From Oceanispirochaeta sp. (GTDB lineage: Bacteria > Spirochaetota > Spirochaetia > DSM-2461), in NCBI GenBank assembly GCA_963663385.2, contig CAXXXD010000004.1, positions 704,001 through 768,000 on the forward strand: a stretch of 64,000 nucleotides of DNA, read 5' to 3'. Below, piece by piece: positions 1 to 41,203 of this stretch. Below the pieces are notes generated by a model. It had not been told where the DNA came from. It did not search any database and worked only from the letters and a program-made list of their open reading frames with translations. Each line of letters starts with the position of its first letter. Position 1 is the stretch's first letter. Both the position numbers and the translations under genes were made by a program.

Positions 1-570
1 CAGCAGGGCATCGGTCATACCGCTTGTTCTGTCTACGGCAGTAGGCAGTTCATTGAAACTGATTCTCATAAAACCGGTTTCATTCTGTTTCCATCCTCTG
101 GCGTCCATCTGCTCCTTCAAGGTATAACCAACCTGCTTTCCGATTTCATAGGCGGAAATACCCATATGGGGAACTTCTTCCATAGGATTGCCGTTGGCAC
201 CGACAAAGCGGTCATCCACGCTCATGACCTTCAGGCCGTTGGCTTTGGCTTTGGCCATAATAGCAGGACCGAGTTTTACATCGGGAGTACAGATGACAAA
301 ACCCTGTGCACCCTGTGCTGCAATATTATCAATAGCCGATAGAACCTTTTCTCCATCGGGGGTTCCGATTTCCAGTACTTTAAAACCGAATTCTCCTCCG
401 GCTTCCTGGGCGAATTTCCATTCATTCTGGAACCAGGGTTCTTCGGGCATTTTTACAAGAAAACCGATTTTTACCTCATCAGATGATCCGGCTCCCTCCT
501 GGGCACCGTTGGCAAAGAGCGCTCCTGATAAAAGCATAAAGCAGATTGCAAGGACTAATCCTTTTTTCAT
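1..570 (-). CDS. araF: L-arabinose-type ABC transporter substrate-binding protein (3' end outside the window)
   Basis: Manual minus-strand translation from ATG 570 (GGAG RBS upstream): MKKGLVLAICFMLLSGALFANG...KIGFLVKMPEEPWFQNEWKFA...GFVICTPDVKLGPAI...SVDDRFV...VPHMGISAYEIG, which are AraF signature segments. Confidence 0.85.
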   Translation of the reverse strand, partial: MKKGLVLAICFMLLSGALFANGAQEGAGSSDEVKIGFLVKMPEEPWFQNEWKFAQEAGGEFGFKVLEIGTPDGEKVLSAIDNIAAQGAQGFVICTPDVKLGPAIMAKAKANGLKVMSVDDRFVGANGNPMEEVPHMGISAYEIGKQVGYTLKEQMDARGWKQNETGFMRISFNELPTAVDRTSGMTDALL

Positions 571-605
571 ATATAACTCCTTTAAGGTTGTTTTCCTCTT
601 TCAAT

Positions 606-621
606 TACAAGTTATATGCCA
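606..621 (-). promoter_or_regulatory. Candidate sigma-54 (-24/-12) promoter for the araF operon
   Basis: Minus strand TGGCATATAACTTGTA versus consensus TGGCACG-N4-TTGCW; correct spacing, GT instead of GC at -12; next to a sigma-54 activator gene. Confidence 0.6.
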
Positions 622-717
622 TTTATTGGAGAATATTGCAAAAAAAATGTAATTTCTTATATGGAATAAAAATGTACTAGGAACATTAAAATAGTACAAT
701 GGGTGTTCTCCGGAAAG

Positions 718-768
718 TGGGAAAACCCGATTTCCCCTTTCCCATGGGAATGGGAAAAAACTTTCCCA
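718..768. promoter_or_regulatory. Candidate enhancer (UAS) palindromes
   Basis: GGGAAA-N6-TTTCCC (719-736), TTCCCATGGGAA (739-750) and TGGGAAA-N4-TTTCCCA (751-768), 100-150 bp upstream of the candidate sigma-54 promoter. Confidence 0.55.
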
Positions 769-830
769 GAACCCGGGCTCCCGTCGGATTTGCTTGTCAT
801 TACTCCATATCACCCTTTATTATCATTCCT

Positions 831-2150
831 ATGAGTAAGAGAATTCTGATTGTGGATGATGAGGAGCAGCTTTGCGTCAGCCTCTCCCGGCTGCTGAAAG
901 CCAGCGGGTATGATCCCGTTTATACAACAGTTCCCGAAATGGCTCTTTCCCTTCTTAAAGAGCAGCCCGCCGACCTGGTCATTACGGATTTGAAAATGCC
1001 CGGGTTTTCCGGAATTGATCTGATTAGGGAAATCCGCATCAGATTTCAGGATCTTCCCATTATAATGGTCTCAGGATACGCCTCAGTGGATAATGTCGTA
1101 AAGGCCATGCGTTACGGAGCCCTGAACTTTTTTGAGAAACCTGTCCGGTTTACCGATTTGATCAAGGATATAGATCTGCTTTTCCCGCAGGGAAAATGCG
1201 ATTCAGGTTCTGGTCCGAACCTGCTTGATATAACCTCCTCCAATAAGAGGATGCAGGATAAAATTTCCATGCTTCACAAAGCCGCCCCGACGGATGCCCC
1301 GGTCCTGATTACGGGAGAGTCCGGTACGGGAAAGGAGCTGGCCGCATCGGCCATCCATTCAAGAAGCAACCGCCGTGACGGCCCGTTTATAAAACTCAAC
1401 TGTGCTGCCATCCCCGAGTCTCTTCTGGAAAGCGAGCTTTTCGGGCATGATAAAGGGGCTTTTACTGATGCCGTAGACAGCCGGCCCGGGAAGTTTGAGG
1501 TGGCCGAAGGGGGTACCATTTTTCTGGATGAAATAGGAGAGATGAGTATTAAAACACAGGCCAAACTCCTCCGTGTCCTTCAGGAGAAGGAGTTTGAACG
1601 CCTGGGATCGCATAAAACCCGTAAAATGGATGTGCGGATCGTAGCGGCAACCAACCGGGATCTGAATAATCAGATTAAAAAGGGAGGCTTCCGTGAAGAT
1701 CTGTACTACAGGCTTTCGGTAATACAGATCGAACTGCCGGCTCTGCGTGAACGCAGGGAAGATATTCTACCTCTTTTTCGGGGGTTCCTTGCAGAGTTCA
1801 ACAGCAAGTACTGCAAAAATATAAAAGGGATGGATCTTGAAACAGAGACTCTGTTTCTGGGGCACGACTGGCCCGGCAATATCAGGGAGCTCCGGAATAC
1901 GGTGGAAAGGATGGTTATCTTCTGTGAAGGGGAAACTCTCTGTTCTCAGCTCCTGCCGGAACAGTACAATCGTTATCCCCTTACGGATGAACTTATCCCT
2001 CTCCGTTATGCTTCGGACAGCATTACAAGGGAGATTATTCTGGATACTCTGGAGAAAACCGGAGGCAGCCGCAGCAGATCGGCGGAAATCCTGGGGATTA
2101 CCAGACGAACCCTGTACAATAAAATGAAGAAACTGAGGATAGAGGTCTGA
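831..2150 (+). CDS. Sigma-54-dependent response regulator (NtrC/AtoC family: REC-AAA+-Fis HTH)
   Basis: ILIVDDE...LVITDLKMP receiver, GESGTGKE Walker A, ESELFGHDKGAFTDA, FLDEIGE, WPGNIRELRN, C-terminal HTH; true start ATG 831 rather than 699. Confidence 0.95.
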   Translation: MSKRILIVDDEEQLCVSLSRLLKASGYDPVYTTVPEMALSLLKEQPADLVITDLKMPGFSGIDLIREIRIRFQDLPIIMVSGYASVDNVVKAMRYGALNFFEKPVRFTDLIKDIDLLFPQGKCDSGSGPNLLDITSSNKRMQDKISMLHKAAPTDAPVLITGESGTGKELAASAIHSRSNRRDGPFIKLNCAAIPESLLESELFGHDKGAFTDAVDSRPGKFEVAEGGTIFLDEIGEMSIKTQAKLLRVLQEKEFERLGSHKTRKMDVRIVAATNRDLNNQIKKGGFREDLYYRLSVIQIELPALRERREDILPLFRGFLAEFNSKYCKNIKGMDLETETLFLGHDWPGNIRELRNTVERMVIFCEGETLCSQLLPEQYNRYPLTDELIPLRYASDSITREIILDTLEKTGGSRSRSAEILGITRRTLYNKMKKLRIEV

Positions 2151-3965
2151 ATGGATTCCCCGATACGGCAGCCTCTGCTTCAAATGCAGAATATCCGCTA
2201 CTCCTATGGGTCTCTCAAGGCTCTGACCGGTATTGATTTCGACCTTTACCCATCCGAGATACACGCCCTCTCCGGTGATCATGGATCCGGGAAATCCTCT
2301 CTGGTAAAGCTGTTGAGCGGTTCTCTGAACTGCCAGACCGGTATGATAAAGATTAAAGGCAGACAGATCACAACCCTGTCTCCCTCCATCGCGGTACAGC
2401 TGGGAATCGGCATGGTTTATCAGAATGAGGAGATTATTCCCACCGGAACCCTTATGGATAATGTCTATCTGGGGCAGTTCCCCCTGTTTATGCTTCCCAG
2501 GAGTAAAGCGGCGCTGCTGCAGCAGTGCCGGGAACTGTTTGACTTTTACGGGTTTGAAGAGGACCCGAGAATGAAAATTGCGGAACTGTCTCCCACACGC
2601 CGGCATATGCTCCCTTTTTTAAGGGTTCTTGCCCGGGGAGCGGATATACTGATTCTGGATGAAATCGCACAGAAAACAACTCCCGAAGAACAGGAACACA
2701 TCTATAAACTGCTGCAGATCTGCAGGGATGCCGGTAAGGGCATAATCTATGTAACTTCCAATATTGATGAAATCTTTCGAATCGCCGACCGTGTAACGAT
2801 TCTTCATAACGGTTTACGCCGCAGTACCGAAGAGGTTTCCCGTGTGGACCGTACGCGGCTGGTTAACCTTGCCTTCAATTTTGCCATGGACCGGGAAGAC
2901 GGCGAATCGCCAGTGGACCATGAGGTCCTTCTGATCTCCCGTTATGATAAGCGGATAATTAATGATATCCCCCAGGGGATAATGATTATTTCTCCGGAAA
3001 ATGAAATACAGGATATTAATACGGCGGCTGCCAGGATACTTGAGTGTCAACCCGAGGATCTGACCGGGTCGGATCTGTCCGAGTATTTCATGGCGCTGCC
3101 GATTGAAAAAAAGGAAGAAATTCACAGGGCAATCCTGGAGCGGAGGAAGGTATTGTGGCAGAGCCTCAAATTCCTCAGGAACAAGAGACTGAAAATCCGG
3201 ATCTCCCCTCTGGGAGAGGAAGGGGACAAGAAACAGGGGCTGCTTCTTTTTCTTGAAGATTTTTCTTCGGATTATGAAACACGAGAATACCTGCTGCAGG
3301 CGGAAAAATTTGTTTCTACTGCGGAAATGGCCGCAGGGGTTGCTCATGAGGTGAATAATCCTCTGGGGATTATTCAGAATTATCTGGATCTTCTCCAGAT
3401 GGAATCTCTGAGCGAGAACGGCGAAGACTGCGTTCAACGGATTCAATCCGAGCTGAGCCGGATTGTAGAGATCATCAGCAGTCTGCTCTCCTTTTCCAGA
3501 GCCGGCGTTCGTCCCCTGAAAACCTTGAATGTGCATGATCTTCTGGATGACGTTGTCCTATTGATGGGGCATAAGCTTAAGCACCGGGAAATCCGTTTAT
3601 TCAAACGCTACTCATCCGGGAAATTATACATAGTGGCTCATGAGAACAAGCTGAAACAGCTGTTCCTTAATCTGCTGAACAATGCATCCGAGGCTGTACT
3701 TAATAAGGGTGAGATTTCCATCTCGACCGGAAAATCGGGAAACTATGTGAATGTAAACATTACAGATAACGGAAACGGCATCCCCGGGGATATCAGGGAT
3801 CAGATCTTTTCTCCTTTTTTTACCACTAAAGTAACGAAAACCAATACCGGTCTGGGATTGTCCATCTGTCAGCATATTGTCGAATCCTATAATGGCTTTA
3901 TAACAGTGAAGAGTACTCCGGGCGAGGCAACCACCTTTACCGTGCGATTGCCTCTTCAAGCCTGA
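2151..3965 (+). CDS. Soluble sensor histidine kinase with N-terminal degenerate sugar-ABC ATPase domain and PAS domain
   Basis: aa 1-245 ABC NBD (GDHGSGKS, GMVYQ, ILILDE, FRIADRVTILHNG); PAS about aa 265-370; H-box AHEVNNPL; N-box NLLNNA; DNGNGI; PFFTTK; GLGLSI. Confidence 0.9.
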   Translation: MDSPIRQPLLQMQNIRYSYGSLKALTGIDFDLYPSEIHALSGDHGSGKSSLVKLLSGSLNCQTGMIKIKGRQITTLSPSIAVQLGIGMVYQNEEIIPTGTLMDNVYLGQFPLFMLPRSKAALLQQCRELFDFYGFEEDPRMKIAELSPTRRHMLPFLRVLARGADILILDEIAQKTTPEEQEHIYKLLQICRDAGKGIIYVTSNIDEIFRIADRVTILHNGLRRSTEEVSRVDRTRLVNLAFNFAMDREDGESPVDHEVLLISRYDKRIINDIPQGIMIISPENEIQDINTAAARILECQPEDLTGSDLSEYFMALPIEKKEEIHRAILERRKVLWQSLKFLRNKRLKIRISPLGEEGDKKQGLLLFLEDFSSDYETREYLLQAEKFVSTAEMAAGVAHEVNNPLGIIQNYLDLLQMESLSENGEDCVQRIQSELSRIVEIISSLLSFSRAGVRPLKTLNVHDLLDDVVLLMGHKLKHREIRLFKRYSSGKLYIVAHENKLKQLFLNLLNNASEAVLNKGEISISTGKSGNYVNVNITDNGNGIPGDIRDQIFSPFFTTKVTKTNTGLGLSICQHIVESYNGFITVKSTPGEATTFTVRLPLQA

Positions 3966-3970
3966 ATGGC

Positions 3971-4822
3971 TTACAGACGGATCTTTTTCTCAAATGCCGC
4001 CCTGAGTTTTCCGGATATCCCCCCCGGGGTTCCCGTCCCGATAATCCGTCCGTCAATACAGGTTACAGGGATTATTTCAGCCCCGGATCCTGTCAGAAAG
4101 CACTCTTCCGCCGTATAAAGGTCAAAGCGGGTCAGGGTTGTTTCCTCAACAGGGATCCCCAGTTCACGGCCCAGCTCAAGTATGGTTGCACGGGTTATCC
4201 CTTCCAGAATCCCCAGCCAGGGGGCGGGTGTCAGGAGTTTCCCTTCCCGGATAATAAAAATATTGTCCGCCGTACACTCCGTCACATACCCGTCCCTGTT
4301 CAGCATTACCGCTTCAGGGCATCCGGCATCCCGGGCTTCCATCTTTGCCATGATGTTTGTCATATAGTTGAGGCTCTTTACCCGGGGATCAAATATATCC
4401 GGGGAGAGTCTTCTTGACGCGGACGTAATGATTTTCATTCCCTTGTCGTAGAGTTCCTGCGGATAGATCTGGATATCCTCGACTATTATAATGACCGAGG
4501 ATACGGGGCAGCTGGAGGGATCAATTCCCAGATTCCCCTTTCCCCTGGTGACAAGCAGACGGATATAGCCCTCTTTTTTTTCATTTAGCTCAACCGTTTT
4601 TTCTACTGTGCGGATCATCTCCTCCCGGTTCATCGGGATAGTCAGTCTGAGGACTTTTGCGCTGTCATAGAGGCGCCGGATATGCTCCTCCAGTTTAAAC
4701 ACTCTGCCTGCGTAAATCCGGATTCCCTCGAAAATTCCGTCGCCGTACAGCAGGCCGTGGTCAAATACGGAAACCTTTGCCTTATCCCTGTCGTAATATT
4801 TGCCGTCCATATAGATTTTCAT
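3971..4822 (-). CDS. ilvE: Branched-chain amino acid aminotransferase (class IV PLP)
   Basis: DHGLLYGDGIFEGIR, KSLNY, EAVMLN, ILEGITR, EECFLTGSGAEIIPV. Confidence 0.92.
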   Translation of the reverse strand: MKIYMDGKYYDRDKAKVSVFDHGLLYGDGIFEGIRIYAGRVFKLEEHIRRLYDSAKVLRLTIPMNREEMIRTVEKTVELNEKKEGYIRLLVTRGKGNLGIDPSSCPVSSVIIIVEDIQIYPQELYDKGMKIITSASRRLSPDIFDPRVKSLNYMTNIMAKMEARDAGCPEAVMLNRDGYVTECTADNIFIIREGKLLTPAPWLGILEGITRATILELGRELGIPVEETTLTRFDLYTAEECFLTGSGAEIIPVTCIDGRIIGTGTPGGISGKLRAAFEKKIRL

Positions 4823-5685: not shown

Positions 5686-6387
5686 TTAACCGTATTTTTC
5701 GCTTTTTTCGGCATCAAGAATCAACCCGAGGGCTTTATCCCTGCTTCTGGCTTTAATCAGGTTCCGGATTAATTGATTGTCTGCCGCCATCTGACTGATA
5801 CGGGACAGGATGCGCAGGTGCACCACCTCACTGTCTGTAATTATCAGAAAGAAAAGGTGAGTGGGAAGGTTGTCCAGTGAATCGAAATCGCAGCCCTCCG
5901 GGCAGATCCCCAGGATAACTTCCGGTCCCGGCAGGATATTCTCCTCCGGTCGCCGCAGATGGGGGATGGCTACATGCAGACCAATGGCCGTTGAGCTCAT
6001 TTCTTCCCGGTGCATGAGCTTCTTCAGAAAAAGCAGTCTGTTATCCTGACTGATCTGCAACGGGGCTGTCAGCTGTTGAAGCACTTCCTCTTTGCTGCCG
6101 GGCTTCAGATCGCAGATTATACGTTCTTTTCTGATCAGACGGGAAAGGGGAACCAGGGAGCCTTCCTTCTCCAGAAGGGAGGACAGGTCATTCCTGGGAA
6201 GAACAGTCATTCTGGATATCAGCCAGTCATCAATCATAGGCCTCATGAAACGCCATTGACTGGCAATTTTAGCACAGGGAATTTCTCCTTTCTGGATCAT
6301 CCGCAGAACTGTTTTTTCTGCAACCTTGAGGTATTCCGCCACTTCACTGAGGGTCATAATCTGGTTATTAAAAGTGCTGTCAGGCAT
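5686..6387 (-). CDS. Excisionase-like HTH fused to PTS EIIA (PtsN-like)
   Basis: MTLSEVAEYLKVAEKTVLRMIQKGEIP...WRF HTH; REEMSSTAIGLHVAIPH EIIA phospho-His motif. Confidence 0.9.
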   Translation of the reverse strand: MPDSTFNNQIMTLSEVAEYLKVAEKTVLRMIQKGEIPCAKIASQWRFMRPMIDDWLISRMTVLPRNDLSSLLEKEGSLVPLSRLIRKERIICDLKPGSKEEVLQQLTAPLQISQDNRLLFLKKLMHREEMSSTAIGLHVAIPHLRRPEENILPGPEVILGICPEGCDFDSLDNLPTHLFFLIITDSEVVHLRILSRISQMAADNQLIRNLIKARSRDKALGLILDAEKSEKYG

Positions 6388-24741: not shown

Positions 24742-24774
24742 CCTGTCGGAACAATTGTTATGAGGTTAGGGAGA

Positions 24775-26280
24775 ATGAAAGAAAAGGAACCGGAAGTCAT
24801 TCTATCGGTTAAGGATGTAAGTAAGGCATTTCCGGGAGTTAAAGCTCTGGATCAGGTTTCCATTGATGTCCAGAGAGGATCTGTCCATGGAATTGTAGGA
24901 GAAAACGGCGCCGGTAAGTCGACTCTGATGAAAATACTGTCCGGAGTATACAGGAAAGACTCCGGAACCATTATTTTTGATGGGGAAAATATCAAAACCA
25001 CAACCCCTCTGCAGTCAATGCAGAGGGGGCTGAGTATTATTTACCAGGAGTTGAACCTTGTTGACACCATGACCGTTGGTGAGAACGTATTCCTGGGCCG
25101 GTTCAAGGAACTGAGGGGGATGCGGAATACCCATGCCAGGGCAAAAGAACTTTTGAACAGTATCGCCTGTTCTATTGATACACATACAATGATTTCGGAA
25201 TTGAGTGTTTCCGAAAAACAGATGGTGGAGATAACCAAGGCACTGTCGTTTGATTCAAAACTGATAATAATGGATGAACCCAGCAGCAGTTTGACAAGCG
25301 AAGAAATGAATGAGCTGGAAGTGATTATTCATCAGCTGAAAGAGAAAGGAATCTCCATTATTTATATCAGTCACAAACTGGATGAAATCTTTGATTTCTG
25401 TGACCGTGTTACTGTTATGCGCGACGGGAAGGTTATCGATACAAAACCGATTGGAGAAATTGACCGCAGCGAGATGATAGCCAAAATGGTCGGCCGTACC
25501 ATTGAGAACGAATTCCCCGAACGGCCCCGCTGTGTCGGCGGTACACTGATGAAAGTTCAGTCCATCAATACTTCCAGGCTGAGTAATGTTTCATTTGAAC
25601 TGAAGAAAGGGGAGATCCTCGGATTAGTCGGACTGGTAGGGGCCGGCCGGACAGAAATTGTCCGGGCGATTTTCGGAGCCGACAAGGTAAAGGGTCATAA
25701 GATATCCATCAACGGAAATCCGGTTAAAATCAGAAAACCCTCTGATGCCAAAAAGGCCGGGGTCTGTCTTGTTCCCGAAGACCGGAAACTCCAGGGGCTT
25801 GTTCTGCCATTTTCTGTTGAATCCAATATCACTCTTGCCAGTCTGGATAGAATCACCAGGTTCGGATTTTTGAATAAATCGAAAGAGAAAGAGATTGCAG
25901 AGAAACATATAAAAAGACTGGGAGTTAAAACGCCATCGGCAAAAACCCGGGTTGAAAGCCTTTCGGGGGGGAATCAGCAGAAATGCATTGTCGGCCGGTG
26001 GATGGAACTCGACCCGAGCATCCTTATTCTGGATGAACCTACCAGGGGAATTGATGTAGGGGCCAAGTTTGAAATCTATCTTCTTATGAAACAGATTGTA
26101 GAGAACGGCGGTTCCGTAATTCTTATTTCCTCGGAACTTCCGGAAGTTCTTAATATGAGTAATCGTGTTTTGACCATTTGTGACGGGCGGATTACCGGAG
26201 AGTTTAATCCTGAAGAAGCCTCTGCAGATGCCATTATGGCGAAGTCTCTGGAATTTAAAGATAAAGGAGCTGCACAATGA
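24775..26280 (+). CDS. Sugar ABC ATP-binding protein (RbsA-like)
   Basis: GENGAGKST, MDEPSS, ISHKLDE, LSGGNQQK, LDEPTRGIDVGAK. Confidence 0.95.
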   Translation: MKEKEPEVILSVKDVSKAFPGVKALDQVSIDVQRGSVHGIVGENGAGKSTLMKILSGVYRKDSGTIIFDGENIKTTTPLQSMQRGLSIIYQELNLVDTMTVGENVFLGRFKELRGMRNTHARAKELLNSIACSIDTHTMISELSVSEKQMVEITKALSFDSKLIIMDEPSSSLTSEEMNELEVIIHQLKEKGISIIYISHKLDEIFDFCDRVTVMRDGKVIDTKPIGEIDRSEMIAKMVGRTIENEFPERPRCVGGTLMKVQSINTSRLSNVSFELKKGEILGLVGLVGAGRTEIVRAIFGADKVKGHKISINGNPVKIRKPSDAKKAGVCLVPEDRKLQGLVLPFSVESNITLASLDRITRFGFLNKSKEKEIAEKHIKRLGVKTPSAKTRVESLSGGNQQKCIVGRWMELDPSILILDEPTRGIDVGAKFEIYLLMKQIVENGGSVILISSELPEVLNMSNRVLTICDGRITGEFNPEEASADAIMAKSLEFKDKGAAQ

Positions 26281-38257: not shown

Positions 38258-41203
38258 GTGAAAGACATTATGCAGAGTGAATTCTATAATAAAATCCTGA
38301 ACTCGGTACACGACCATATTGTAGTAGTATCGGATGATTTTCATATCATTTATCACAACTACAGTTTTGAAACCCTTCTTCTGCTGCTGGGAAAGGATCA
38401 GTCTGTTTTCCGCGGCAGGGATCTGAGGAGTGTTCTGCCGCAGCCTCTTAAGGACATTATCCCTTCTATAGAGGAGTGTTTCAGACGGGGCGAGATCATC
38501 CGGCAGACACTCTCGCTTAGTATTTTAAATACACCCACCTATCTTAAACTGGTTGCTATTCCGGATTATTCGGGAAATACCGTTCAGAATATTCAGATTA
38601 TTTTGCGGAATACCACCGATGTGGAGCTCCAGAGGCGGGAGCTGAATCAGAAGGTTCAGTTTTTTTCCCAGTTGGTCCGTTATGCCCCCTTAGGGGTTTT
38701 TCTTATCGATCTGGATAATACCAGTATGACTATCTCACACTGGAACCCGGCTATGTCCGATAATTTTTCCCTGAGTGAATCTGAAGTCTTCGGTCGGGAT
38801 TTAAAGGATATATACCCTTTTTCCGATCTTTATGAAGAGATTTCCCCCGCTATTCATGCCATAACTCAAACAGGGCTCTTCTATAAGATCCCTGAGCTGA
38901 CCATCCCTCCTCTCCGAAAGGATTCCGGTTCTGTCCGATACTTCTATCTTAATCTTGTCCCGATAAAACAGGATTCCGGACCTATATATAATGTCCTGGG
39001 CATTATGGATGATATTACAGAGCAAACTCTGGAAGACAGGAAACTTCAGAAGTATAAAAGCAGGCTGGAATCCAGCCTTGAAAAAACTTCCAATCAGCTG
39101 GATGAAACTACGGCTGAAATATCATCCATTTTGAACAACTCTTCGGGAGTCTGCATTTTTTCTCTGGACAGTAATCTGAATTACAGGGTTTTCAACGCCT
39201 ATCACAAACTGCTGATGGCCAGGATCTTTAACAGGGAAATAAGGAAAGGTGATTCCTATCTGGAGTTGATCGCTTCCAATCCGGCCTTTCATGATCTTAT
39301 GGAAAAATACCTGAAAAATGCATTGTACGGTGTAATTGTCAAGACAGAAACTGAACTGATAGCTGATATAAGGGAACCGCAGTTCTACGATACCCTTATT
39401 ACTCCCCTCTATTCAGAGAAGCAGGAGATTAAAGGCGTCACGGTCATTCTGATAGATACAACAGATCTGAGGCGGTCCGAAAAGGAAGCGTTTATATTCA
39501 AGACTGTTGCTGATAATGCCAGCTATGGCGTAATGATTACTGACGAGACGTTTCAGATACACTATTGCAACAGATATTGGGAGAATCTTTTCGGTTATGC
39601 TGAATATTCTCTGACCGGGAAAAAAGCGGATCTCATCTTCCATGAGAAAAATCTTACCCGGATCAGGCAGTCCATCAGGAAATTCAGAGAAGGCGGCGGA
39701 GCCATGAGTCAGCTGGAACTGGATCTGAAGACAGTCGACCATGAACATATGACTGTTCTTCTGAATATTGTCGTATACGGAAAAGACAAATCAAACCCCG
39801 AAGGCATTGCTTTTACCTGCATGGATATTACTCCTATGAAAGATGCCAGGGAAGCCATCATCCTTGCCCGTGACAATGCGGAAAAAGCTTCTGTTATGAA
39901 AAGCTCTTTTGTGGCGAATATGAGCCATGAAATCCGTACGCCCTTAAACAGTATTATCGGTTTTTCCCGGCTTCTTGAAGCTGAGCTGACCAGTGATAAA
40001 CAGAAGGGTCTGCTGAACAGTCTGGTCGCCAGCAGCCGGATACTGAAGGGACTTATCAGTGATATCCTGGACTTTTCCAAGATCGAAGCAGGCAAAATGA
40101 CTCTGGCTTCCGATATCATTGAATCCCGGGATTTCTTTATACAGCTTTTTCAGATGTTCAGTATTCAGGCGGGGAATAAAAATCTGACCTTTTCCGTTGT
40201 GTCCCGTGGAAAAATCCCGAAGCGGTTTGTTTCGGACAGCATACGGGTCAGGCAGGTCCTTATAAACCTGCTGGGAAACGCCATGAAATTTACAGGCAGC
40301 GGAATTGTGACCCTTTCAATTGAATATGCGGCAGAAGAGAGGCAGTTTATCATGTCAGTAGCCGATTCGGGGGTGGGGATCCCCGCGGCAGATATCAATC
40401 TGATCTTTAATCCCTTTGAACAGAAAGAAAAAGAGGATAAAAGACGGTTTGAAGGAACAGGTCTGGGATTATCCATTACCAAACAGCTGATAGAGCTGAT
40501 GAACGGCGCAATCAGTGTCAGCAGCGAAGAGTATAAAGGGAGTCTGTTCCGCATTGTCATCCCTGTTGAAACCTATGGAAACGATGTCATTGATTTGCCT
40601 GAATGGTCGTTCGTCCCGGAAATACAGATCGAGAATCCCGTTTGCTACAGCACTGTCTCTTTTCCGGAATATCCAGGGTTTCAGAAAAAATGGGGGTATA
40701 CCCTGGTGTATGCTGCAAACCCCGATGACCTTCCAGCAGATGTTCTGACGGACCGGTCGTCCATTTTGATACATAAATATTCCGAAACTGTTTCCGTCTA
40801 TAATGATATGGCCCGAATATGTCTCTGTTCCCCTGATGAAATCCTGAACCGGGAAGACAGCGCCGCTGTTAAGTATATTATTGAAGGCCTGTCCGATGAG
40901 AGTGTTTTTGCCAAAGTGCGCAGCTGTCTGGCGGCCCTGAATCAGGGCCGTATGGAAAAGGAGCCTGACTTCTCACTGTTGAGCGGCGGGGATATCGACG
41001 TTCTTCTTCATGCTGTTGAAACAAAGGATTCGACGGAGATCCGAAAAATGGCTGTCATTCTGAAAAACTGCGGCACCGATGGTTCTGTCCTGTCAGAAGA
41101 GGTGATGGACGCCCTGGAGAATTTCGAGATTCCCCGGCTGAATTCCAAACTGGAAAAAGTGGCAAACAGCCTTAAGGAGTATATAGGAGGTTCTCATGAA
41201 TAA
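38258..41203 (+). CDS. Multi-PAS sensor histidine kinase with degenerate C-terminal domains
   Basis: FVANMSHEIRTPLNSIIG, NLLGNAMKFT, DSGVGI, GTGLGLSI. Confidence 0.92.
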   Translation: MKDIMQSEFYNKILNSVHDHIVVVSDDFHIIYHNYSFETLLLLLGKDQSVFRGRDLRSVLPQPLKDIIPSIEECFRRGEIIRQTLSLSILNTPTYLKLVAIPDYSGNTVQNIQIILRNTTDVELQRRELNQKVQFFSQLVRYAPLGVFLIDLDNTSMTISHWNPAMSDNFSLSESEVFGRDLKDIYPFSDLYEEISPAIHAITQTGLFYKIPELTIPPLRKDSGSVRYFYLNLVPIKQDSGPIYNVLGIMDDITEQTLEDRKLQKYKSRLESSLEKTSNQLDETTAEISSILNNSSGVCIFSLDSNLNYRVFNAYHKLLMARIFNREIRKGDSYLELIASNPAFHDLMEKYLKNALYGVIVKTETELIADIREPQFYDTLITPLYSEKQEIKGVTVILIDTTDLRRSEKEAFIFKTVADNASYGVMITDETFQIHYCNRYWENLFGYAEYSLTGKKADLIFHEKNLTRIRQSIRKFREGGGAMSQLELDLKTVDHEHMTVLLNIVVYGKDKSNPEGIAFTCMDITPMKDAREAIILARDNAEKASVMKSSFVANMSHEIRTPLNSIIGFSRLLEAELTSDKQKGLLNSLVASSRILKGLISDILDFSKIEAGKMTLASDIIESRDFFIQLFQMFSIQAGNKNLTFSVVSRGKIPKRFVSDSIRVRQVLINLLGNAMKFTGSGIVTLSIEYAAEERQFIMSVADSGVGIPAADINLIFNPFEQKEKEDKRRFEGTGLGLSITKQLIELMNGAISVSSEEYKGSLFRIVIPVETYGNDVIDLPEWSFVPEIQIENPVCYSTVSFPEYPGFQKKWGYTLVYAANPDDLPADVLTDRSSILIHKYSETVSVYNDMARICLCSPDEILNREDSAAVKYIIEGLSDESVFAKVRSCLAALNQGRMEKEPDFSLLSGGDIDVLLHAVETKDSTEIRKMAVILKNCGTDGSVLSEEVMDALENFEIPRLNSKLEKVANSLKEYIGGSHE

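Follow-up and report, generated by a model that had tools for sequence, protein, structure and literature searches.

The window, by which we mean the whole 64,000-nucleotide stretch of Oceanispirochaeta sp. DNA analyzed here, contains close to its left end a divergent arrangement of three genes (Table 1). A sigma-54 response regulator is followed on the forward strand by a soluble histidine kinase that carries an ABC nucleotide-binding domain (NBD) and a PAS domain ahead of its kinase core; as an earlier note on this DNA had it, the two genes abut (the regulator stop codon ends at position 2150 and the kinase ATG is next), and the divergent gene does encode a periplasmic sugar-binding protein. 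The regulator start was set at 831, in a frame open from 699, on the basis of homolog lengths and the location of the enhancer within 699-830. The sugar-binding protein gene, a complete ORF of 332 residues in the extended locus (L001), is the first of an araFGH operon of which AraG (780 bits, NCBIfam cut-off 689) and AraH (493, cut-off 378) are encoded just left of the window (G000:C4:700972-703485). The sugar-binding protein itself matched no NCBIfam model at E 1e-60, and hence the name AraF is taken from its neighbors.

Table 1. Positions in the window of the genes, protein domains and regulatory sites of the kinase locus
Feature	Position	Strand	Details
AraF-like periplasmic sugar-binding protein, 5' part	1..570	-	Peripla_BP_1, E 2.9e-25
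Predicted sigma-54 -24/-12 promoter of araFGH	606..621	-	TGGCAT-N5-TTGTA; 9/11 consensus matches, -12 GT not GC
Putative second, weaker enhancer site	718..736	.	~32 bp promoter-proximal to main dyad; judged by eye
Palindromic enhancer candidate	751..768	.	TGGGAA-N6-TTCCCA; 147 bp upstream of sigma-54 site; top score 8
NtrC/AtoC-type sigma-54 response regulator (REC-AAA+-HTH, GAFTDA loop)	831..2150	+	Pfam Response_reg, Sigma54_activat, HTH_8
NBD-PAS-histidine kinase	2151..3965	+	604 aa
CUT2 NBD1-derived ABC domain	2166..2879	+	aa 6-243
Walker A of kinase NBD	2274..2297	+	GDHGSGKS from aa 42
Other kinase NBD residues			Gln91 (Q-loop), Asp170/Glu171 (Walker B), DEP proline absent, Ser203 at H-switch position
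PAS domain	2949..3260	+	aa 267-370
HisKA + HATPase_c	3324..3959	+	His399 in HEVNNPL; N, G1, F, G2 boxes intact

The dyad at 751-768 is likely the binding site of the response regulator, and a near-identical dyad occurs at -147 to -150 in four other loci (L123, L124, L127, and L130); the second enhancer site is probable. As rpoN is also encoded in the genome, the locus has, at the level of its sequence, the full set of parts of a sigma-54 two-component system: a REC-AAA+-HTH regulator, a -24/-12 promoter and an upstream dyad. Two more perfect TGGGAA-N6-TTCCCA dyads were found at window position 40571 (G000:C4:740571) and at G000:C4:166739, which may be chance occurrences or further targets of the regulator. 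A second sugar-importer ATPase, encoded at 24760-26280, was considered as the partner of the kinase and rejected in favor of AraG, since it lies 20 kb away and the best sigma-54 score of its operon is 8 (G000:C4:728760), with none of 9 or more. Elsewhere in the window (5686-6387, reverse strand), an excisionase-like HTH_17 domain is fused to a PTS EIIA-2 domain.

Domain structure of the kinase

The four Pfam domains of the kinase lie in one frame (ABC_tran at residues 25-172, with 74.8 bits for a cut-off of 25, PAS at 267-370, HisKA at 392-451, and HATPase_c at 498-603), and its best 19-residue Kyte-Doolittle window reaches 1.14 vs. 2.83 in the permease, confirming that the protein is an in-frame NBD-PAS-HisKA-HATPase fusion without a transmembrane helix. 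The NBD motifs were also located as first described, with GDHGSGKS at residue 42, MVYQ at 88, ILILDE at 166 followed by IAQ, and YVTSN at 200. Residues 9-254 align with the first NBD (NBD1) of the 24760-26280 ATPase at 28% identity (E 7e-36), and the domain aligns with the second NBD (NBD2) at 22% identity (E 6e-10). The best models on the NBD side are AraG, AlsA, YtfR, and MglA, whose cut-offs the kinase falls far short of because half of each model is covered; against AraG it scores 155.5 for a cut-off of 689 and has one NBD rather than two in tandem, which sets it apart from the transport ATPases of CUT2 importers.

The kinase core has the H box histidine and the N, G1, F, and G2 boxes that would place it among the class I histidine kinases, and residues H399, E400, N507, N511, D539, G541, and G543 are invariant across 145 alignment rows. 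The best NCBIfam matches of the system are AtoS/NtrB kinases and AtoC/NtrC regulators, with which it shares the PAS-HisKA-HATPase core, the sigma-54 regulator, the -24/-12 promoter and the upstream dyads. We nevertheless rejected an identity with AtoS, as the score against that model (NF008468) is 222.6 for a cut-off of 646 and the match covers residues 263-603 only; the JGI label "AtoS" carried by many homologs rests on the core only.

An AlphaFold2 model of the kinase (mean pLDDT 79.9, pTM 0.64) has a complete NBD, PAS domain and kinase core, joined between the NBD and PAS by a linker of low confidence (residues 244-264). The modeled NBD matches those of ABC transporters, e.g., FbpC (9j4r, rmsd 2.8 over 228 columns). 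By Foldseek the parts of the protein match separately, to ABC NBDs and to PAS-kinases, and among the matches listed none spans both NBD and kinase (best TM by query 0.36). Misassembly or read-through as the origin of the fusion is ruled out by the full-length homologs described below and by contig continuity: positions 1-4200 lie within a single contig in three of four public runs, which may be the source of the window DNA, and the fourth run, which belongs to another study, has a contig of its own (2481-3224) spanning the NBD-PAS junction.

Distribution of the family and its linkage to CUT2 importers

The fusion is not unique to this assembly. All 120 homologs among the matches listed carry ABC_tran and kinase domains over 98-100% of their length (40-100% identity), and of the 150 clusters (50% identity) listed by a profile search, 135 align over the whole model in one stretch. 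Their source names are of Spirochaetota (Oceanispirochaeta, Marispirochaeta, Sphaerochaetaceae) and KSB3 (Vecturithrix, Moduliflexus), with single records under the unverified labels Desulfomarina, Bacteroidia, and Planctomycetota. Matches at E 1e-90 were found in 31 of 61 near relatives (this genome included) and in 13 of 301 genomes of the phylum, with four candidates scored per genome; the sole genome match at E 1e-90 or better that starts past model residue 50 is at a contig end. A related-locus search with kinase-core patterns gave 80 loci, four of which match the query full length in one stretch (L006, L007, L008, and L010), and in the ESM Atlas the family is present as unnamed kinase clusters. 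Searches of the open-access literature, judged by titles and the starts of abstracts, listed no description of an ABC-NBD histidine kinase, and the passages of PMC8534201, PMC5847659, and PMC6321045 reached by term look-ups do not mention the fusion. The NBD-kinase family is real and conserved and apparently unstudied, a variant of transporter-coupled two-component signaling.

A few members depart from the common form. P0121, a homolog of 851 residues, has a duplicated PAS-HisKA stretch joined by junk sequence and looks like an assembly duplication, and some kinases or regulators are frameshifted or contain a stop (L109, L134, and L153, and genome rows with one stop), for which sequencing errors or decay are possible. 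In L153 the binding protein and permease are present and the adjoining ATPase gene was not found. Longer NBD fusions (1058-3020 residues) were absent among 1852 candidates at E 1e-25, which is weak evidence. In Actinomycetota (251 genomes of the phylum of G360, including G412, G452, and G484, with five candidates scored each), no full-model match occurs among the 150 matches shown, beyond which there are 204 more, and none of 12 long-frame candidates fetched is an NBD-kinase fusion. The ESM Atlas does hold two Actinomycetota clusters (166 and 64 members, ~830-850 residues) with ABC_tran and HisKA, one of which also lists GAF_2 (score 0.83, a lead only); such an NBD-GAF-kinase may be a second NBD-kinase architecture and a parallel invention.

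We mapped 77 loci holding 76 kinase ORFs, and counted a kinase as linked to an importer when two or more of the genes for a binding protein, an ATPase and a permease were close by. A CUT2 importer lies beside the kinase in 53 of the 54 fully flanked loci (at least 6 kb upstream and at least 5 kb downstream of the kinase) and in 69 of 76 overall, most of the misses being at contig ends, whereas in this genome 5 of 66 other kinases passed the same test, as did 46 of 600 random genes. The mapped loci do not count as independent observations, since 18 clusters hold all 58 of those with a two-NBD ATPase. In 70 of 76 loci the gene immediately before the kinase encodes a sigma-54 regulator (69 of the 72 with at least 1.5 kb upstream), and in most loci the two genes abut or overlap. 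The synteny proposed as a check by the earlier note, with CUT2 sugar-ABC operons and a sigma-54 regulator, is therefore a property of the family. Its architecture is unchanged across the 18 ATPase clusters and where the importer has a Bmp-type binding protein (L005) or is CUT2-like with a single-NBD ATPase of ~263 residues (L108:4703-5500, L120:4908-5699).

The genome encodes five paralogs with 25-33% identity to the window protein, each of which adjoins a different importer. Each of four further regulator-kinase pairs (G000:C4:67054, C2:932157, C1:132097, and C1:180956; L002-L005) adjoins a CUT2 importer distinct from the others, and every one of these importers has a sigma-54 site. The L005 locus encodes two permeases together with a Bmp-type binding protein, and in L003 an alanine-racemase-like gene lies within the importer operon. 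At L007:2962-9812 two regulator-kinase pairs are arranged back to back, each directed toward its own importer genes.

Sigma-54 sites accompany this linkage. Among the 63 loci with both a regulator and a transporter gene, 54 have a -24/-12 site (at least 9/11 consensus matches) upstream of the importer operon, compared with none of 63 on the opposite strand and 2.7% of base shuffles, and 18-bp dyads scoring at least 7 lie upstream in 14 of 54 loci vs. 0.5% of dinucleotide shuffles. Within the genome, all five kinase-linked CUT2 operons have a sigma-54 site, and none of 30 other CUT2 operons does. Activation of the importer operon, here araFGH, by the regulator-kinase system is thus well supported by gene order and promoter sequence, and in the broad sense that the pair is predicted to regulate its linked transporter operon, this is a transporter-coupled two-component system.

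The one fully flanked exception is L119 (L119:3804-15130, G143), where kinase and regulator lie beside LacI-araB-araD-araA and an importer is absent. A search for AraH in that genome found no close homolog (best 28-36%). The L119 kinase is without the Walker B Glu and the H-switch His. Downstream of the sigma-54 site of this locus (6314, minus strand) there is now a 48-codon ORF, along with a gene for an ice-binding/Ig-like lipoprotein. The locus looks rearranged, and may be a relic or rewired.

Origin of the NBD and state of its motifs

The kinase NBDs form a single clade nested in the NBD1 of CUT2 ATPases, with a support of 0.99 by FastTree (69 kinases and 88 NBD1 sequences) and of 100/99 by IQ-TREE (19 and 31 rows, rooted on NBD2). 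By these phylogenies, the NBD arose once, from the N-terminal NBD of a CUT2 sugar-importer ATPase, and repeated local copying of each neighboring ATPase is ruled out, as the kinase NBDs form one clade. Two deep clades are present among the kinase NBDs, and sister AraG proteins (L001, L010) are served by kinases of either, from which it follows that the module was re-paired with importers.

Motifs were counted in the 69 genomic kinases of at least 560 residues (seven shorter ORFs were excluded) and in the 88 NBD1 sequences. The Walker A Lys, Q-loop Gln and Walker B Asp are each retained in 69 of 69 kinases and the Walker B Glu in 61; the fold and these residues, as well as a degenerate signature, are shared with the N-terminal NBDs of RbsA, AraG, and MglA, as described in part of PMC11466899. 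The kinase differs from those ATPases in its single NBD, a Walker A His or Arg (replacing Asn44 in 68 of 69), the lack of the DEP proline (0 of 69 vs. 87 of 88 NBD1 sequences), a basic residue at 175 (Lys or Arg in 61 of 69), and a variable H-switch. The altered D-loop of the window protein, DEIAQ, was singled out by the earlier note, and the loss of its proline is family-wide. The loss of the H-switch His stands for the window protein, which has Ser203, and for some relatives, but not for the family, since the His is retained in 44 of 69 genomic kinases (78 of 145 alignment rows); we therefore rejected this loss as a family mark, and by sequence the marks of the family are the change of the Walker A Asn to His or Arg and the loss of the DEP proline.

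The earlier note described the NBD as dead. With LSPTRRH in place of LSGGQ and Ser203 at the H-switch, the window protein lacks these features of a catalytic NBD, and its signature is poor; "dead" is nevertheless too strong a term, as the Walker A Lys, Q-loop Gln and Walker B Asp-Glu of a competent ABC NBD are present and mostly kept in the family, as is the His in many members. The NBD1 sequences of CUT2 ATPases are also without LSGGQ, and NBD2 has LSGGQ and is mostly without the Walker A Lys, and so the poor signature of the kinase was inherited from NBD1; a degenerate site with a poor NBD1 signature, and an RbsAC2B stoichiometry, are described in part of PMC11466899. From the nucleotide-binding motifs kept alongside this ancestral signature, the kinase NBD probably binds ATP-Mg, and we infer that an NBD homodimer would hydrolyze poorly.

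Conservation varies along the protein. At depth the NBD is far more conserved than the PAS domain (mean distance 1.40 vs. 2.48), whereas among close orthologs PAS is about as conserved as the NBD (86/86, 75/69, and 68/65%). Within the NBD, residues 76-90, before the Q-loop, are as conserved as in NBD1 (0.34 vs. 0.35), and residues 92-108, after it, are relaxed relative to NBD1 (0.31 vs. 0.44). The regions remodeled relative to NBD1 are the D-loop (cross-similarity 0.19), the C-terminus with the MVG motif (0.15) and Walker A Asn44. In MalK and BtuD, the permease side of the NBD includes the residues ahead of the Q-loop, and it is the partner NBD that the D-loop, Walker A Asn and C-terminus lie against.

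Possible routes of signal input

The reading we prefer, at roughly even confidence, is that the kinase senses through its own CUT2 importer by docking on the permease in place of AraG. Because a histidine kinase is a dimer, it would offer a pair of NBD1-like domains, one for each of the docking sites that the AraH dimer has on its cytoplasmic face, and would occupy a share of the permease where AraG would sit. Sugar-loaded AraF on that permease would then close or open the ATP-bound NBD pair, and the movement would be relayed via PAS to the DHp helices. As each of the two nucleotide sites would combine a poor signature with a Walker A that is intact, the complex would be a receptor with little or no hydrolysis, for which the importer would provide both the membrane crossing and the ligand specificity. 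The kinase would phosphorylate the adjacent NtrC-type regulator, as gene coupling and intact motifs suggest, and the regulator very probably acts from the dyad at 751-768 to open the sigma-54 promoter (606-621), a step strongly supported by their sequences. The output side, activation of the importer, is accordingly well supported, and the input side is what we infer.

Docking on the permease is consistent with the lack of a transmembrane helix or extracytoplasmic sensor, the NBD1 origin of the domain, its linkage to importers with sigma-54 sites, the pairing of one unchanged architecture with many kinds of importer, and the constraint on the NBD, including that on the residues ahead of the Q-loop. 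Since the NBD is nested in CUT2 NBD1, it derives from the very importer class that the kinase regulates, and as there are five paralogs, five different importers and no membrane part, each kinase needs its own specific signal. Against docking stand the relaxation of residues 92-108, the conservation of PAS among close orthologs, from which PAS may bind a ligand, the L119 locus without importer, and tests of co-evolution that gave no significant result. In the latter, the distance of the kinase NBD to its cognate NBD1 was not significantly smaller than to others (10 of 18 clusters above 0.5, with a mean percentile of 0.59; percentile 0.61 for the 76-111 stretch), the cognate NBD1 ranked top in 7 of 58 loci, and the best column for convergence (102, p 0.003 among ~234 columns) was lost after correction. 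A cluster-level Mantel test of NBD against permease (49 complete loci, 18 clusters) gave r 0.12 and p 0.13, and r 0.01 for the 76-111 stretch; the partial correlation given the kinase core was 0.24-0.26 across non-independent pairs.

The weakness of these tests speaks for a rival reading in which the kinase never contacts the transporter. The PAS domain, or a remodeled nucleotide pocket of the NBD, would instead bind a cytoplasmic ligand, either the sugar once imported or the first metabolite made from it, with the NBD serving as an ATP-gated dimerization or scaffold module. We consider such internal sensing unlikely, though a serious alternative. A PAS domain that diverges fast between clades and is yet conserved among orthologs is expected if ligand specificity changes, the L119 kinase sits beside arabinose catabolic genes in the absence of an importer, and the basic residues gained at 44 and 175 could serve to hold a phosphorylated ligand. 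According to part of PMC7096432, L-histidine is bound by the PAS domain of CbrA. Internal sensing leaves unexplained, however, why the NBD originates in the regulated importer class and is retained throughout, and why it is more constrained than PAS at depth.

We give distinctly less credence to true flux sensing, in which the kinase would bind the working transporter via its ATPase, at the NBD2 half of AraG or a side surface, and read the hydrolysis cycle. The kinase domain is a homolog of NBD1, which naturally pairs with NBD2, an intact ATPase gene is near 52 of the 54 fully flanked kinases, and BceAB-BceS offers a precedent for coupling signaling to transport activity (part of 10.1101/2020.02.28.969956). 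Yet the D-loop, C-terminus and Walker A Asn44, the surfaces of NBD-NBD contact, are where the kinase is most unlike NBD1, NBD1 and NBD2 are already tethered in one chain, and kinase-NBD distances do not track ATPase distances (r 0.03). Least of all do we favor the NBD as a free ATP/ADP (energy-charge) sensor or as the vestigial passenger of an old fusion, for although its nucleotide-binding residues are retained and the protein is soluble, so general a signal cannot distinguish five paralogous systems with five importers in one cell, and a vestige would not be strongly constrained across more than 130 clusters at 50% identity.

Several known systems resemble the one proposed. In PstSCAB-PhoU-PhoR and MalK-MalT the state of an ABC importer likewise reaches a regulator via the NBD side; these systems differ in that the components are distinct proteins and the ATPase involved is the active one of the transporter itself. 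PhoR, moreover, is anchored in the membrane, and MalT does not belong to the two-component proteins. In the flux-sensing BceAB-BceRS systems of Firmicutes, as parts of two accounts describe them, a kinase without an extracytoplasmic sensor controls the neighboring ABC transporter operon and is thought to sense through the transporter (10.1101/2020.02.28.969956; PMC8534201). BceS, however, has two transmembrane helices and meets its transporter within the membrane, and the role of BceAB is resistance to peptide antibiotics, whereas the window kinase is soluble, has its own NBD, acts with a sigma-54 activator and is partnered with a CUT2 importer; with no transmembrane helix and AraGH as the transporter, it is not a Bce-type module. 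Transporter-derived domains N-terminal to a histidine kinase are described in parts of the literature for CbrA (SLC5; PMC7096432), which as in the window kinase also has PAS ahead of the kinase core, and for Ks-Amt5 (PMC8534201). In these proteins the fused part is a membrane domain, taken from a secondary transporter or a channel, whereas in the window kinase it is the cytoplasmic ATPase domain of an ABC importer.

Tentatively, and with somewhat less confidence than in docking itself, we suggest that the binding protein and permease of the importer are reused as a cell-surface receptor, its motor swapped for a kinase dimer with two motor-like domains, and that one soluble kinase design can acquire a new ligand specificity by re-pairing with any CUT2 importer, with the NBD-GAF-kinase of Actinomycetota maybe a parallel invention. 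A PDB search with the CUT2 permease returned no chain at E 0.01, and so a kinase-permease complex would be structurally new too. If the proposal is true, it would represent a new route for a signal to cross the membrane, in which mimicry of the ATPase subunit lets a soluble kinase employ an ABC importer as its receptor. Coupling of transporter to kinase would become testable with a single soluble domain, whereas the Bce and Pst/PhoU systems need multi-protein membrane contacts, and many importers of sugars and nucleosides in KSB3 bacteria and free-living spirochaetes would have a regulator assigned to them.
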